Shown piece after piece: positions 1 through 6,288 of a stretch of DNA of 6,288 nucleotides (positions within the stretch are counted from its first letter, which is position 1; every line of letters begins with the position of its first letter). The translations under genes and the position numbers were made by a program. The DNA lies in IMG/VR virus record IMGVR_UViG_2695420699_000002, positions 1 through 6,288 of that record. One strand, written 5' to 3'. The stretch comes from a virus. Its lineage: Duplodnaviria; Heunggongvirae; Uroviricota; Caudoviricetes. The notes beneath the pieces were generated by a model, which saw nothing but the letters and a program-made list of their open reading frames with translations, was not told the DNA's origin and ran no database searches.

Positions 1-2
1 CA

Positions 3-698
3 GCCTTCATCAGTGGTAAGGCACCGGAAATCAAACCCTCGCCCGGCGGCAACACGCCATCGGGGCCGTCTGAAGATGCATCCATACGCACAATCTCCCT
101 GATGCCGACAGCCGGAGATGCTGCTGCGCAGGGCTGGACCATTAAGGACGGCGGAATTCAGTTGTCAGATGGTGTATTTAAGATCACCAAGCAGAGCAAT
201 AAAACCTGGTCCCTGACGCATCCGGTGGATGACGCAATTACCCTGCTGACACAGGGCGGCAGACTGACCTGTAAGTTCCGCCTGTCAGGCGCACTGACCA
301 ACAATCAGTTCGGTCTGGGAATTTATCTGTATACCGATGTAGCGTTACCTGACGTCGTGGCGATGACCGGGACTGGTAACCCGTTCCTGATGTCGTTCTT
401 CACCCAGACCACAGACGGCAAACTGAATCTGATGCATCACAAGAAAGCAGGAAACACAAAGTTGGGCGAGTTCGGGAATTACAGTAACGACTGGCAGACG
501 CTGGAGCTGGTGTTCACCGCCAGCAGTGCCACGGTTACTCCGAAACTGAATGGAGTGGCTGGCCCGGCATTCCAGGTCATAAAAGACAGTCTGACACTGG
601 GGCTGAATGCACTGACGCTGACGGATATTACCAAAAATGCAACGTATGGCGTTGAGATAGAAAGTCTGGTGCTGGAAATAAATAGTCCTGCAGCGTAA
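3..698 (+). CDS. Hypothetical protein, 5'-partial (C-terminal beta-rich domain after a Pro/Ser/Gly-rich linker); possible accessory/moron gene upstream of R
   Basis: Frame 3 is open from position 3 to TAA at 696-698 with no stop, so the gene probably starts upstream of the window. The ATG at 102 has no Shine-Dalgarno upstream and is probably internal. Residues before it (KAPEIKPSPGGNTPSGPSED) look like an interdomain linker. The downstream sequence is rich in T/S/G/N/L with alternating hydrophobic patterns, typical of a beta-sandwich, but I recognise no family. Hand-counted GC is roughly 45-52 percent versus about 58 percent for R-I. Confidence 0.55.
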   Translation, partial: AFISGKAPEIKPSPGGNTPSGPSEDASIRTISLMPTAGDAAAQGWTIKDGGIQLSDGVFKITKQSNKTWSLTHPVDDAITLLTQGGRLTCKFRLSGALTNNQFGLGIYLYTDVALPDVVAMTGTGNPFLMSFFTQTTDGKLNLMHHKKAGNTKLGEFGNYSNDWQTLELVFTASSATVTPKLNGVAGPAFQVIKDSLTLGLNALTLTDITKNATYGVEIESLVLEINSPAA

Positions 699-721
699 GG
701 AAGAACAGGAGAGCAAAACAG

Positions 722-1189
722 ATGCTTAAGACAAACAGCCTCCGGAAGGGCATGATTCATGGGTGTCGCTGGTGTCAGGCCAACCCGGAAAAATTCACCA
801 TTTTCGTGGAGAGCGGCAACATTGAAACGACCGGAGAAACGCCCTCGTTTGTTTACCGCTATCAGATGGTGATGTTTGTCATGGATTACGCCGGGGAGCT
901 GGACGACCTCACGCTGCCGCTACTGGCGTGGTTATCCGAAAATCAGCCGCAATTGTTGCTTAATCCGGAGCGTAATCAGGACATCAAATTCTCCGCCGTT
1001 ATCAATGACGATGACAGCGCCGATCTCCTGTTTACGCTCCCTCTGCGGGAACGCGTTCGCATCACGCGCAGCAGTCAGGGGGCACCGCAGGCAGAACACC
1101 TGCAGGAGCCAAAACCCCGTCTGCCATCTTCCGAAGGCGACTGGTCGCATGTATTCCAGGATGTGACGTGGGGTGAAAGCGATGGATAA
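722..1189 (+). CDS. R: Phage tail completion protein R (P2 gpR-like)
   Basis: 155 aa ORF, the same size as P2 gpR, with a similar N-terminus (MLK..SLR) and sitting immediately upstream of S-V-W-J-I-H. AGGAG at 707-711 precedes ATG 722. Stop TAA 1187-1189 overlaps the S start (ATGGATAA). Confidence 0.75.
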   Translation: MLKTNSLRKGMIHGCRWCQANPEKFTIFVESGNIETTGETPSFVYRYQMVMFVMDYAGELDDLTLPLLAWLSENQPQLLLNPERNQDIKFSAVINDDDSADLLFTLPLRERVRITRSSQGAPQAEHLQEPKPRLPSSEGDWSHVFQDVTWGESDG

Positions 1190-1817
1190 GGCATTCACCC
1201 GCGTGGATGAAACCTTTGAGGCTATCCGCGACAGCCTGAATCAGCAGGCCATCAATAACATCGCCAGAAAGCTGGCACAGGATTTACGCCGCGCCCAGCA
1301 GGCGCGTATCCGGTCACAGAAAGCGCCGGACGGGACCGCGTGGACACCACGCAGACGCCGCGTAACCCGGATACAGGAGCGCATTCGCTTTATCTGGAAT
1401 AACGAAGCACGCACGCTGAAAAACTGGCATCACGACACGGGGAAATACGGGCGAACCATTACCGGGTGGGATGAGGATAAAAACAATATCCGCACGTTTT
1501 ACCGGGATGACATCGACCGCTTTCTGGAAATACGCACCCGGCGCATCAACCAGGACAGCACAAAGCGCGTCCCCATGTTCGTAAAACTGCGCACCGCCCG
1601 CTACCTGAAAGCCCGTGCAGATGCTTCCGGTGTGACGGTGGGTTACAGCGGCGTGGCCGCACGTATTGCCCGCGTTCATCAGTTCGGTGAGCGCGATCAG
1701 GTTGCGCCGGGCATTTTCACCGATTACCCGGTACGTGAGCTGTTGGGCATCAGTCAGGCAGATGAACGCCTGATTTATAACACGGTGCTGGGCCGGATTG
1801 CGGAGGCTGTACGGTGA
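1182..1817 (+). CDS. S: Phage virion morphogenesis / tail completion protein S (P2 gpS-like)
   Basis: Contains motifs remembered from the gpS family (QKAPDGTAWTPRRR; ARIARVHQFG). ATG 1182 is preceded by GGGGTGA and overlaps the R stop; an alternative GTG start at 1173 is in the same frame. Stop TGA 1815-1817 overlaps the V GTG start. Confidence 0.8.
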   Translation: MDKAFTRVDETFEAIRDSLNQQAINNIARKLAQDLRRAQQARIRSQKAPDGTAWTPRRRRVTRIQERIRFIWNNEARTLKNWHHDTGKYGRTITGWDEDKNNIRTFYRDDIDRFLEIRTRRINQDSTKRVPMFVKLRTARYLKARADASGVTVGYSGVAARIARVHQFGERDQVAPGIFTDYPVRELLGISQADERLIYNTVLGRIAEAVR

Positions 1818-2395
1818 GCGCAGAACTCATGCGACTGCTGAGCAACATCATCCGCACTGGGATCATCTCTGAAGTTGATGAGAAGTCCTGGTGCGTGCGC
1901 GTTCGCAGCGGCGAACTGGAAACAGGCTGGTTGCGCTGGAACACCACGCGCGCGGGAGCCTTCAATGTGTGGCTGCCGCCATCACCCGGCGAACAGGTGG
2001 TAATTGCCTGCATTGGCGGCAACCCGGAAACCGCCATGATAATTGGCAGCCTGTGGAGTGATGCCAATCCGGCCCCCGGCAAAAGCCTGAAAGAAATCGT
2101 GGTCAGCGCGCCGGATGGCGCGGTGTTCCGCTACGACGCGGACGCAGGCGCACTGAGCGCCAGCGGCATGAAAACGGCCACCCTGCAGGCATCCGTCAGT
2201 GTGACACTGGACACGCCCGTCGTGGAATGCACAGACCTTCTGAGAACGGCGACGCTTGACGTCACAAAAGGGGGAAAGATGAGCGGCAATATCACGCACA
2301 GCGGCGGCAATTTCACCTCAAACGGCATCACAGTGCATACGCATAAACACGGTGGCGTGAAAGGTGGCAGCGATTCGACAGGAGGCCCGCAGTGA
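1814..2395 (+). CDS. V: Baseplate assembly protein V / central spike (P2 gpV-like)
   Basis: GTG start with GGAGG at 1802-1806 (7 nt spacing). N-terminal IRTGII motif, GEQV, and C-terminal HTHKHGG (2336-2350) match the conserved iron-binding HxH apex of gpV-type spikes. Stop TGA 2393-2395 overlaps the W start. Confidence 0.9.
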   Translation: MSAELMRLLSNIIRTGIISEVDEKSWCVRVRSGELETGWLRWNTTRAGAFNVWLPPSPGEQVVIACIGGNPETAMIIGSLWSDANPAPGKSLKEIVVSAPDGAVFRYDADAGALSASGMKTATLQASVSVTLDTPVVECTDLLRTATLDVTKGGKMSGNITHSGGNFTSNGITVHTHKHGGVKGGSDSTGGPQ

Positions 2396-2742
2396 CAACC
2401 CGCTACACAGGAATGAACCCGGACGGAACGGGAAACCTGAACGATATGGAGCATCTGAAACAGTCAGTCAGGGACATCCTGACCACCCCGCTGGCAAGCC
2501 GGGTTATGCGACGGGAATATGGCAGCCTTGTGCCCGATTTAATTGACGAACCCATGAATAACACCACTCGTCTGCAATGCATGAGTGCTGCCGTGATTGC
2601 GCTGACACGATGGGAACCCCGCATTGCCCTGGACGCCATCGACGTTGTCTGGAAGGCAGGAGGCCGCGCCGGGGTGACGCTGTCGGGCACTGTCATGCAG
2701 ACCATGCAGAATGTTGAATTAACCATCACGCTGAGGGAGTAA
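2392..2742 (+). CDS. W: Baseplate wedge protein W (GPW/gp25 family)
   Basis: 116 aa (P2 gpW is about 115 aa). N-terminus MTTRYTGMN resembles P2 gpW MTARYLGMN, and the RVMRREYGSL motif is present. GTG start 2392 with GGAGG at 2381-2385. Confidence 0.9.
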   Translation: MTTRYTGMNPDGTGNLNDMEHLKQSVRDILTTPLASRVMRREYGSLVPDLIDEPMNNTTRLQCMSAAVIALTRWEPRIALDAIDVVWKAGGRAGVTLSGTVMQTMQNVELTITLRE

Positions 2743-2745
2743 ATC

Positions 2746-3642
2746 ATGCCTGCCGTTGACCTTTCCCAGTTACCGGAACCCGCCATCATCGCGGAGCCTG
2801 ACTTTGAGGCAATTCTGGCTGACACAAAGGCCATGATGATTGCGTCCTATCCTGTCGAACAGCGTGAAGCCGTCTCCGCCGCGCTGGAGCTGGAATCGGA
2901 ACCCCTGAACGTTATCGCCCAGACAACAGCGTTTCGTGAAATGCTGTTACGCCAGCGGGTCAATGAGGGGGCACGCGCCTGCATGTTAAGCCACAGCGCC
3001 GGGACAGACCTGGACAACCTCGCGGGCAATATGAACACAAAGCGCCTGACCATCACTCCGGCAACGGATACCACCGACGCAGTGATGGAAAGTGACACCT
3101 CGCTGAGACTGCGGGCGCAGCGGGCGTACGATGGCCTGAGTGTTGCTGGCCCGTCAGGTGCATACGAGTATTTTGCCCGCAGCGCCAGCGGTCTGGTGCG
3201 TGATGCGCGGGCTATCAGTCCGTCTCCGGCAAATGTGACGGTTTCCATCCTGTCCACTGAAGGCGACGGCACAGCAACGGAGGCGTTGCTTAATACCGTT
3301 CGCGCCGTTCTGAATGCAGAGGATACCCGCCCGGTGGCCGACCGCCTGACGGTACAGAGCGCCAGAATCGTGACATGGCGGCTGAATGCAAAACTGTACT
3401 TTTACCCCGGCCCGGAATCCGAACCTATTCTGGCGGCGGCTGAATCGTCGTTCAGGAAGTGGCTGGCTGAGCAGGGGCTTATCGGTCAGGACGTGGCGTT
3501 GTCCGCCATTGCTGCCGCACTGCATGTGCACGGTGTGCAACGCGTGGAGATAATCGAACCCACACAGAATATGGCCATCAGCGACATACAGGCGGCGCGC
3601 TGTGAGTCGTTCACCATCAGCGAAGGTGGGCGCAATGAGTAA
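2746..3642 (+). CDS. J: Baseplate protein J (P2 gpJ-like, Baseplate_J family)
   Basis: 298 aa (P2 gpJ is about 302 aa). Starts MPAVDLSQLPEP (P2: MPIIDLNQLPAP) with conserved stretches (ESEPL, RLTITPA, RPVADRLTVQSA, YFYPGPESEPI, GVQRVE). GGGAG at 2735-2739 precedes ATG 2746. Confidence 0.9.
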   Translation: MPAVDLSQLPEPAIIAEPDFEAILADTKAMMIASYPVEQREAVSAALELESEPLNVIAQTTAFREMLLRQRVNEGARACMLSHSAGTDLDNLAGNMNTKRLTITPATDTTDAVMESDTSLRLRAQRAYDGLSVAGPSGAYEYFARSASGLVRDARAISPSPANVTVSILSTEGDGTATEALLNTVRAVLNAEDTRPVADRLTVQSARIVTWRLNAKLYFYPGPESEPILAAAESSFRKWLAEQGLIGQDVALSAIAAALHVHGVQRVEIIEPTQNMAISDIQAARCESFTISEGGRNE

Positions 3643-4165
3643 TTCACTGTTACCACCATCAGCCAGCAGTTTCATGCGTTGTGCCGAAGCTGTCGGAACG
3701 CGCATTACAGACATCCCGGTAGACCTCAACACGCTGTGGTCGCCGGACACCTGCCCGGTGCACCTGCTGCCTTATCTCGCCTGGGCATTTTCCGTTGACC
3801 GCTGGGATCGCAACTGGCCGGAAGAGACAAAACGACAGGTGATTCGTGATGCATGGCTGATACACCGACACAAAGGGACCATCAGCGCACTGCGCAGGGC
3901 CATTGAGCCGCTGGGATACCTCATTCGCGTGTCTGAGTGGTGGGAGTTCGGCGGAGAACCGGGAACATTTACCGTTGAAGTCGGCACACTGGACAGTGGC
4001 GTGACGGAGGAAATGTATCTGGAAATGGAGCGGTTGATTGCTGATGCCCGTCCGGTCAGCCGCCACATGACAGGGCTGAATATCATTCAGGAAATTCCGG
4101 GGGATATTTTTGCAGCGGCGGCAACTCATGACGGTGAAGTTATTACCATTTATCCGGACGATTAA
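3635..4165 (+). CDS. I: Baseplate/tail protein I (P2 gpI-like)
   Basis: ATG 3635 overlaps the J stop (ATGAGTAA) and is preceded by AAGGTGG at 3623-3629. It gives 176 aa, matching P2 gpI length, with conserved motifs ([53 protein letters not shown]). The track ORF start at 3602 is in the same frame but lies inside J and lacks an RBS. Confidence 0.85.
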
Positions 4166-4167
4166 GC

Positions 4168-6210
4168 ATGAGTACCACAACACGAAAATTTAAAACCGTT
4201 ATCACCGATACAGGTGCAAAAAAATTAGCTCAGGCAGCCGCGCCAGATGGTAAGCCTGTCCGCCTGACTCATATGGCCGTGGGCGACGGTGGCGGCGCGT
4301 TGCCCACACCAGACAGTAAGCAGACCCGTCTGGTGCATGAGGTGTGGCGACACACTGTTAATCGCGTCATCCTGGACGCAACACATCAGAACCGCATTAT
4401 TGCGGAGCTGGTTATTCCTCCAGAAACGGGCGGATTCTGGATCCGGGAAATTGGTGTGTTTGATGAGCACGGCGATTTAATCGCGGTGGGCAATACTGCC
4501 GAAAGTTACAAGCCAGCCGTTGCCGAAGGGTCCGGACGTGCACAAACATTTCGCACCATTCTGACCGTATCCAGCACTGCCACTGTGGCGCTTACCGTGG
4601 ATAACACCATGGTGATGGCCACAGTGGATTACGTGGATAACAAACTGAAAGAGCATGAACAGTCACGATGTCACCCGGATGCCTCGCTGACCGCAAAAGG
4701 CTTTGTTCAACTCAGTAGCGCCACTAACAGCGATTCTGAAACGCTGGCTGCAACGCCGAAAGCGGTTAAGGTCGCGTATGATCTTGCTAACGGAAAATAT
4801 ACAGCGCAGGATGCCACAACAGCGCGAAAAGGCCTTGTCCAGCTTAGTAGTGCAACCAACAGTACATCTGAAACGCTGGCGGCAACATCAAATGCAGTAA
4901 AAGCTGCCTATGACAATGCTGAAAAACGTCTGCAGAAAGCTAAGAATGGTGAGGATATCTCTGATAAAGACACCTTTACGAAAAATATCGGTGCCTGCCG
5001 TGCATATAGTGCAGAGCTGAATATTGGTGGAGATAGTGAAGCATGGACAACTGCGCAGTTGATTTTTTGGCTAGAGAGTCAGGGGGCATTTAACCATCCT
5101 TACTGGATGTGCAAAGGCTCATGGGCTTATGCAAATAATAAGGTCATTACAGATACAGGTTGCGGAAGTATTTGTCTTGCAGGTGCTGTTGTGGAAGTTA
5201 TTGGCACCCGCGGCGCAATGACCATACGCATTACCACACCGAGTACATCCAGCGGTGAAGGCATCCCTAATGCTCAATTTACTTATATTAATCATGGTGA
5301 TGCTTATGCTCCTGGCTGGCGAAGGGACTATAACTCCAGGAATAAGCCAACAGCATCAGAGATCGGGGCGTTACCGTCAGATGGGACAGCAGTATCGTCA
5401 GTTAATCTGGCTTCAAAAGGTCGGCTGACCGCCCTGACAGATAATATGCAGGGGGCCACAGGTCTGGAGTTATACGAGGCGTATAACAACGGATATCCAA
5501 CAACGTATGGAAATATCATTCACCTGAAAGGGATGACAGCCGTTGGCGAAGGCGAATTACTCATCGGCTGGAGTGGTATAAGCGGTGCTCATGCTCCGGC
5601 ATTTATTCGTTCACGACGGGATACGACCGACGCAAACTGGTCGCCGTGGGCGCAGCTTTACACCTCGGCTCATCCTCCTGAAGAGTTTTATCCAGTCGGT
5701 GCACCGATTCCGTGGCCATCAGATACCGTTCCGTCTGGTTATGCCCTGATGCAGGGGCAGACTTTTGACAAATCTGCATACCCGAAACTTGCAGTCGCTT
5801 ATCCGTCAGGCGTTATTCCTGATATGCGTGGCTGGACGATTAAGGGCAAGCCCGGCAGTGGTCGTGCCGTATTGTCTCAGGAACAGGACGGCATTAAATC
5901 GCACACCCACAGCGCCAGCGCATCCAGTACGGATTTGGGGACGAAAACCACATCGTCGTTTGATTACGGTACTAAAACGACCAGTTCATTTGATTACGGC
6001 ACAAAAACTACGAATAGCGCTGGAAATCATTCACACAATATACCTGTTGGTCACACTGGCGCGGGGAATGGTGTATCAGCCGGTTATAACGCTGCGTTAG
6101 GTACTGGTACCACGTCGAGCGCAGGCGAGCATGCTCACAATGTATATATCGGTGCCCATAACCACACTATCGGCATTGGTGCTCATGCCCATTCTGTCAT
6201 TATTGGTCCC
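4168..6210 (+). CDS. H: Tail fiber protein H (P2 gpH-like), 3' end interrupted by IS insertion; reading frame runs on into the IS with no stop inside the window
   Basis: ATG 4168 lies 2 nt after the I stop. The N-terminus ([19 protein letters not shown]...MAVGDGGG...HEVWR...[34 protein letters not shown]) matches the conserved baseplate-attachment domain of P2 gpH. Further down are two copies of the tail-fiber repeat motif, a tail-collar-like segment ([10 protein letters not shown]...YPKL...IPDMRGW) and an HxH array. Frame 1 has no stop from 4168 to the window end; native sequence ends at 6210 where the IS terminal repeat begins. Confidence 0.85.
4696..4914 (+). repeat. Two in-frame copies of the phage tail-fiber repeat motif (about 87 bp each, 132 bp period) within H
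   Basis: Copy 1 from 4696 ([29 protein letters not shown]) and copy 2 from 4828 ([29 protein letters not shown]). The nucleotide copies differ at several synonymous positions. Confidence 0.75.
5941..6018 (+). repeat. 30-bp tandem repeat (about 2.6 copies) encoding the decapeptide (G)TKTTSSFDY within H
   Basis: 5941-5970 acgaaaaccacatcgtcgtttgattacggt; 5971-6000 actaaaacgaccagttcatttgattacggc; 6001-6018 partial third copy. Copies differ mainly at synonymous sites (tcgtcg versus agttca for Ser-Ser). Confidence 0.75.
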
Positions 6211-6288
6211 TGGATTTGCCCCTATATTTCCAGACACCTGTTATCACTTAACCCATTACTGGCTTGCTGCCGTAGATATTCCCGTGGC
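6211..6288 (-). mobile_element. Partial IS2-like insertion sequence (IS3 family): terminal inverted repeat and adjacent transposase 3' end, extending beyond the window
   Basis: From 6211 the sequence TGGATTTGCCCCTATATTTCCAGACACCTGTTATCACTTAACCCATTAC... closely matches, from memory, the reverse complement of the IS2 right end (TGGATTTGCCCCTATATTTCCAGACATCTGTTATCACTTAACC...), with a few mismatches. It abruptly replaces tail-fiber coding sequence. Confidence 0.75.
6222..6288 (-). CDS. IS2-like transposase OrfB (InsD-like), C-terminal fragment; 5' part lies outside the window
   Basis: The - strand translation ends ...[21 protein letters not shown] with stop TAG (complement of 6222-6224), closely resembling the remembered IS2 InsD C-terminus ...[22 protein letters not shown]. 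Confidence 0.65.

Follow-up and report, generated by a model that had tools for sequence, protein, structure and literature searches.

The end of a probable IS2 isoform interrupts the tail-fibre gene H of a P2-like Escherichia coli prophage

Natural tail-fibre defects are known from prophages of Escherichia coli, examples being the prophages of enterohaemorrhagic E. coli (EHEC) that are riddled with the insertion sequence (IS) IS629 and the stf frameshift of laboratory lambda. The window analysed in this work is a stretch of 6,288 nucleotides from a virus of the Caudoviricetes (positions 1 to 6,288 of IMG/VR record IMGVR_UViG_2695420699_000002), in which the tail-fibre gene H of a P2-like E. 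coli prophage runs directly into the right end of an isoform of IS2. Very probably, this isoform has recently transposed into the 3' end of H, between codons 681 and 682. As in the examples above, one lesion in a late structural gene, be it a mobile element or a frameshift, would leave a defective, otherwise intact prophage. The side fibre of laboratory lambda is dispensable, whereas H is the only fibre of P2-type phages.

Both partners of this junction have well-described relatives. IS2 of E. coli K-12 belongs to the IS2 group of the IS3 family, and its proteins InsC and InsD correspond to OrfA and OrfB. Its transposition follows a two-step circle pathway, and it is bounded by a right inverted repeat (IRR) of 41 bp and a left inverted repeat (IRL) of 42 bp (PMC3299598). 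On the fibre side, the reference is the receptor-binding tip of T4 gp37, in which the collar domain D10 comprises residues 811-881 and 1010-1026, the stem residues 882-931 and 960-1009, and the tip residues 932-959; the protein has seven iron sites, and the histidines that bind the iron were reported to be critical or essential for function (PMC6957217). The contacts of T4 with its receptor sit in the tip subdomain (PMC5221442, PMC6957217). A third relative is the Stf/Tfa-type fibre cassette of lambda.

To place the junction, positions 5200-6288 and the whole window were compared by megablast with 5,426 complete E. coli genomes. Over positions 1-6210 the window was 100.0% identical, with 0 differences, to the P2-like prophage of E. 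coli SCU-105 (NZ_CP051738.1), and all prophage matches broke off at exactly position 6210. An uninterrupted version of H is present in 182-187 of these genomes. At the corresponding site the intact copies, such as those of SCU-105 and of O26:H11 strain 11368, read ...ATTATTGGTCCC followed by CACGGACACACC..., that is, GGTCCC/CACGGA, and past GGTCCC they run as CACGGACACACCATCACC... for 90 more bases to the stop codon of a 710-aa protein annotated as 'phage tail protein'. In the window itself, the open reading frame (ORF), rich in HxH motifs, extends to ...CATTCTGTCATTATTGGTCCC at position 6210 and is followed by TGGATTTGCCCCTATATTTCCAGACACC... until the window end, the junction being ...GGTCCC/TGGATTTGCCCC. 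The encoded protein agrees with the 710-aa protein of strain 11368 in 679 of 681 residues, and the likeness ends at residue 681, so that the cut lies between codons 681 and 682. An earlier note, made from the bare sequence, had placed the end of the H coding sequence at 6210 with an IS2-like terminal repeat starting at the next base, and had advised measuring the loss against intact homologues; all intact matches indeed stop at this position, positions 6211-6288 begin with the IRR, and the alignment reveals the loss of 29 C-terminal residues.

The assignment of the gene to the H position of a P2-type module, also made in the earlier note, is confirmed by the gene order R-S-V-W-J-I-H, in which the gene follows gpI, by the annotation of relatives, and by the Pfam domains Phage_tail_fib (PF12571, residues 6-153), Phage_fiber_2, and Collar. 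As had been noted before, the H frame remains open, with no stop codon from 4168 to 6288. When the frame is extended with the sequence of a complete copy of the isoform (locus L008, described below), it ends with ...GER and a stop codon located 7-9 bases past the window end, which would give a fusion of 709 aa, a figure that presumes that the IS continues as in L008. The predicted fusion product consists of H(1-681) and 28 unrelated, Cys-rich residues.

In 4,471 of the 5,426 genomes, the foreign DNA, positions 6211-6288, has matches at the ends of genes annotated as IS3-family/IS2 transposases, and 1,013 records match it with at least 99% identity (E 2e-31). These matches lie on chromosomes and plasmids, in other phages, and at a flank of the locus of enterocyte effacement (LEE), that is, in unrelated contexts. 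On one side of the junction the DNA is thus single-copy and of prophage origin, and on the other it belongs to a multi-copy mobile element. As a reference served a complete element of 1331 bp at positions 2501-3831 of L008 (NZ_CP122822.1, plasmid unnamed6 of the enterotoxigenic E. coli [ETEC] strain ETEC1731). This copy is 95.6% identical to K-12 IS2, has the same length of 1331 bp without gaps, and shares the IRR/IRL architecture and the OrfA/OrfB layout; imperfect terminal inverted repeats were detected at its ends. Its OrfA and OrfB are intact; according to Pfam, OrfA carries HTH_Tnp_1 and OrfB carries HTH_21, rve, and rve_3, and a programmed frameshift is annotated. The full 1331-bp layout, with a 42-bp IRL and with a -1 frameshift between OrfA and OrfB, is seen in the reference copies L008 and L009; the rve domains were confirmed in this reference copy only, as the window holds just 21 OrfB codons. 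The 78 bases of the window are 92.3% identical to K-12-type IS2 ends, from which they differ at 6 positions. When read against the K-12 copy, one of these differences falls inside the 41-bp IRR. The OrfB C terminus of the isoform reads QQAS, as compared to QRAC in K-12. K-12-type IS2 ends are annotated as 'IS3-like element IS2 family transposase', and the RefSeq label of the isoform is 'IS3 family transposase' only. In the ISfinder convention, elements with at least 95% nucleotide identity to IS2 are isoforms, and those below this value are new IS. Judged by sequence identity, the foreign DNA represents the IRR end of an IS2-type element, probably an isoform, and its first base coincides with that of the IRR (TGGATTT...). 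The transposase C terminus that had been proposed for the opposite strand was identified as the end of OrfB, comprising 21 codons on minus-strand positions 6222-6287.

The K-12 IS2 copy is flanked on both sides by GTAAT, a duplication of 5 bp, and GTCCC at positions 6206-6210 is therefore the expected duplicated target; the prediction of these five bases in the earlier note agrees with what is read from the sequence and with the duplication length in K-12. An element of the IS3 family such as IS2 would insert by copy-out/paste-in via a minicircle. The right end of the IS would face the promoter side of H, with the transposase genes antiparallel to H. After a simple insertion, the far IS end ...GGGGGCCAGTCTA would be followed by GTCCC and then by CACGGACACACCATCACCGTTAACGCT..., that is, by the rest of H and the assembly gene. 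The insertion appears to be very recent, because no difference from the intact prophage was found in 6210 bases. The position of the junction, the identity of its two partners, the loss of 29 H codons, and the read-through into the IS are shown by the sequence and its comparison with intact copies.

Further copies of the same isoform were noted elsewhere. The L008 copy breaks a tail-fibre gene on the phage-like ETEC plasmid; its flanks differ (GACAC versus GTGCA), without a simple target duplication, which suggests a secondary rearrangement. Another copy adjoins the LEE regulator gene ler (positions 3001-4144 of locus L002, NZ_AP018802.1, strain E2863). An IS1203 insertion has in turn truncated this copy, which is annotated as a frameshifted pseudogene. 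The idea that the isoform prefers fibre genes was dropped, as the ETEC plasmid provides one further fibre case and the copies of phi456 and PhiR11_1 lie outside fibre genes.

What H loses can be mapped on T4 gp37. Residues 507-710 of intact H align end to end with residues 812-1026 of gp37 (2xgf_A, PDB 2XGF; phmmer, E 8.3e-78), with collar, HxH motifs, and C-terminal end in common. Differences are that H has six HxH motifs per chain as compared to the seven iron sites of gp37, that its tip region is shorter, and that the gp37-type module is grafted on a P2-type N terminus and a Mu S-like middle. In gp37 numbering, the cut lies at 997/998. It separates the fifth HxH motif (HAH, residues 673-675) from the sixth (HGH, residues 682-684). 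The sixth motif is lost, and with it go 12 residues at the end of the returning stem strand and the C-terminal collar strand of 17 residues. The earlier note had located the cut right after the HxH-rich region, which is slightly inexact, the cut being between the last two motifs. Similarly, its term receptor-binding end fits the end of the gene, but not the place of the cut in the three-dimensional structure, since the tip subdomain (H residues ~624-648, by homology to gp37) is kept in the ORF.

The lost segment is, by sequence, the most conserved part of the gp37-type module, with 27 of 29 residues identical to T4 gp37 (998-1026) as compared to 115 of 175 in the part that is kept. The H of the window is without the equivalent of gp37 998-1026, and a closed collar and a full HxH stem were seen only in the intact homologue. 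In T4 gp37 the lost elements close an iron-clamped trimer, and for this reason the tip of the fibre is not expected to fold or trimerise. By analogy, we infer that neither a truncated nor a fused H would be able to form this intertwined, iron-clamped trimer. Because H is the only fibre of P2-type phages, such a defect should abolish adsorption.

H (window positions 4168-6210; positions 9168-11878 of locus L003, an intact prophage) is a mosaic of three parts: the N terminus is of P2 type (PF12571), residues 249-408 hardly differ from the Mu S/S' fibre of PDB 8ju3, and residues 507-710 belong to the T4 gp37 tip type. In lambdoid prophages, the stfR/tfaR and tfaQ cassettes share about 90% DNA identity with the 3' third of H plus the assembly gene, a part that has matches in more than 4,500 E. 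coli genomes. In intact relatives, a 192-aa Caudo_TAP tail-fibre assembly gene starts at the H stop codon, with a TAATG overlap, in agreement with the earlier note, according to which an assembly gene (G in P2) normally follows H. In the window, IS sequence and not the assembly gene comes directly after H; this is a consequence of the insertion and no evidence against the P2-type homology. A simple insertion would shift the assembly gene 1336 bp downstream and uncouple it from the translation of H. About 1.25 kb of RNA, antisense to the transposase and not translated, would then precede it. IS insertions are known to exert polarity, and the assembly gene would probably be under-expressed through polarity of the Rho type.

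Several other features of H and its junction were noted. A scan of H with Tandem Repeats Finder reported nothing. A 10-residue peptide occurs twice in tandem in H (residues ~591-617, window positions 5950-6010, plus strand) and once in the aligned T4 gp37; at the DNA level it was not reported by Tandem Repeats Finder. A single terminator-like hairpin lies within the H coding sequence at 5940-5957 (plus strand); with an expectation of 0.3 in shuffled sequences, it is probably due to chance. A promoter-like hybrid site at the H/IS junction was not found.

A number of observations weigh against a simple, inactivating insertion. The window ends 78 bases into the IS, probably because a short-read contig ended there, and an intact IS, the GTCCC duplication, and the H remnant with G beyond it are predictions. 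The near junction (ATTATTGGTCCCTGGATTTGCCCCTAT) was not found in GTDB species representatives, JGI metagenomes, or IMG/VR, and BLAST searches revealed no H/IS2 junction in complete E. coli genomes or GenBank phage records. In addition, a consensus scan of the IS detected no intrinsic terminator in the H-to-G direction, so that polarity on G would have to be Rho-dependent, and the loss of fibre function is predicted from homology. Related searches gave a similar picture: the protein collection held an exact match neither to the partial protein of 707 aa nor to the reconstructed fusion of 709 aa, the contigs encoding the gpJ of the window contained intact prophages only, and the far junction pattern GGGGCCAGTCTA-N(0-9)-CACGGACACACCATCACCGT did not occur in GTDB representative or JGI metagenome contigs. 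That the junction is present in no second record, and that the window, in the manner of short-read contigs, reaches only 78 bases into a multi-copy repeat, would be compatible with an assembly artefact, in which a misjoin brought a repeated IS end next to the prophage while the organism has an intact H. However, the start at the exact first base of the IRR is a signature of transposition, the chance of a random join at this base being about 1 in 1331 per end, and contigs normally stop in repeats where a real copy of the repeat exists. An artefact is thus considered very improbable. The notion that this fibre family naturally has such a variant 3' end, with no mobile DNA involved, can be regarded as refuted: more than 1,000 records of unrelated context contain IS termini identical to the 78 bases, the opposite strand encodes a transposase C terminus, and every one of the 182-187 full-length homologues goes on with CACGGA... 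The earlier note had itself raised the question of whether intact homologues naturally contain the sequence, and the intact copies answer it in the negative.

The window offers no view of the far IS end, and an IS-mediated rearrangement may have placed DNA other than the rest of H beyond the IS, either by deletion next to the element or by inversion or recombination involving two copies of IS2. In this case the 3' end of H, G, and perhaps more of the prophage would be lost or moved. E. coli strains with this prophage can hold many IS2-type copies; in SCU-105 there were 17 match places, and the IS end was the sole repeated part of the query. Furthermore, the L008 copy in the ETEC plasmid fibre gene, which is without matching 5-bp flanks, indicates that secondary events happen. 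On the other hand, the identity of the 6210 upstream bases to the intact prophage suggests a very recent and probably simple event, and IS2 transposition usually results in a simple insertion (PMC3299598). A rearrangement is therefore seen as unlikely. With regard to function, the H::IS2 fusion has an open frame, a near-native length (709 versus 710 aa), and the receptor-contacting tip subdomain, features that would be expected of a functional fibre with altered properties. Yet the 28 added residues derive from antisense IS sequence unrelated to the lost segment, and this segment, 27/29 identical to T4 gp37, holds an HxH motif and the closing strand of the collar; the iron-binding histidines are essential in gp37 (PMC6957217). 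The chance that the fusion is a functional fibre is accordingly rated as very small. It seems just as doubtful that the insertion represents a reversible or selected 'off' state, in which precise excision restores H and adsorption is switched at the population level, or a fusion that changes the fibre properties; the open frame and the kept tip are the only hints in this direction. Such excision would be conceivable in EHEC-type hosts with the IS-excision enhancer, which reportedly acts on copy-out/paste-in IS elements (for an overview, see bioRxiv 10.1101/2023.06.07.543989). A recent, simple insertion of the IS2 isoform that inactivates H is thus the reading that is preferred here.

The features identified in the window are listed in Table 1. 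Upstream of H, positions 1-4165 correspond, by sequence, to a P2-type tail and baseplate module. The window begins inside the gene of a 625-aa protein that carries the domains SASA (sialate O-acetylesterase-like) and DUF6645. This gene is located with the lysis cassette on one side and gpR on the other, a position at which P2 has no such gene, and its product has the appearance of cargo or of an additional enzyme associated with the virion. Downstream of the fibre assembly gene, intact prophages have a gene for serine O-acetyltransferase (positions 11922-12494 of L003, minus strand), in a slot between the assembly gene and the tail genes that is a typical cargo position in P2. After a simple insertion, this gene would be expected just past the displaced assembly gene.

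Table 1. Coordinates of the features found in the 6,288-nucleotide window
Feature	Position	Strand	Basis
C-terminal part of SASA/DUF6645 protein	1..698	+	Pfam DUF6645
gpR	722-1189	+	Pfam P2_Phage_GpR
gpS	1182-1817	+	Pfam Phage_tail_S
gpV	1829-2395	+	Pfam Phage_base_V/Phage_spike
gpW	2392-2742	+	Pfam GPW_gp25
gpJ	2746-3642	+	Pfam Baseplate_J
gpI	3635-4165	+	Pfam Tail_P2_I
Tail-fibre gene H, truncated (codons 1-681 of 710)	4168..6210	+	Protein and DNA identity to intact copies, Pfam
Part of H homologous to the T4 gp37 receptor-binding tip (residues 507-681): N-terminal part of collar, outgoing stem, tip subdomain (~624-648), most of returning stem, 5/6 HxH	5686..6210	+	phmmer and residue mapping
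GTCCC, predicted 5-bp target	6206..6210	.	Read directly from sequence
First 78 bases of IS2 isoform, right end first, transposase genes on minus strand	6211..6288	-	78/78 identity to L008 2501-2578
IRR, 41 bp	6211-6251		Length from PMC3299598
OrfB (InsD), last 21 codons and stop (6222-6224)	6222..6287	-	Translation; matches annotated coding sequence end at L008 2512
IS-encoded extension of H frame, 26 codons in window	6211..6288	+	Translation

The event described here is a standard IS knock-out, caused by a well-characterised element, IS2, in a well-characterised type of fibre gene, and as such a known phenomenon that raises no new biological question. It has a bearing on annotation: the record of this prophage copy should state that the fibre gene is disrupted and adsorption probably defective, with the rest of the late region pristine, and an open frame that continues into the IS is no sufficient reason to annotate the H ORF as a full-length fibre. 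As a clean case of very recent IS2 transposition, the locus could also serve as a strain-level marker. Maintenance of the prophage is probably still possible, and it may even lyse its host cell, but the particles released would not adsorb.

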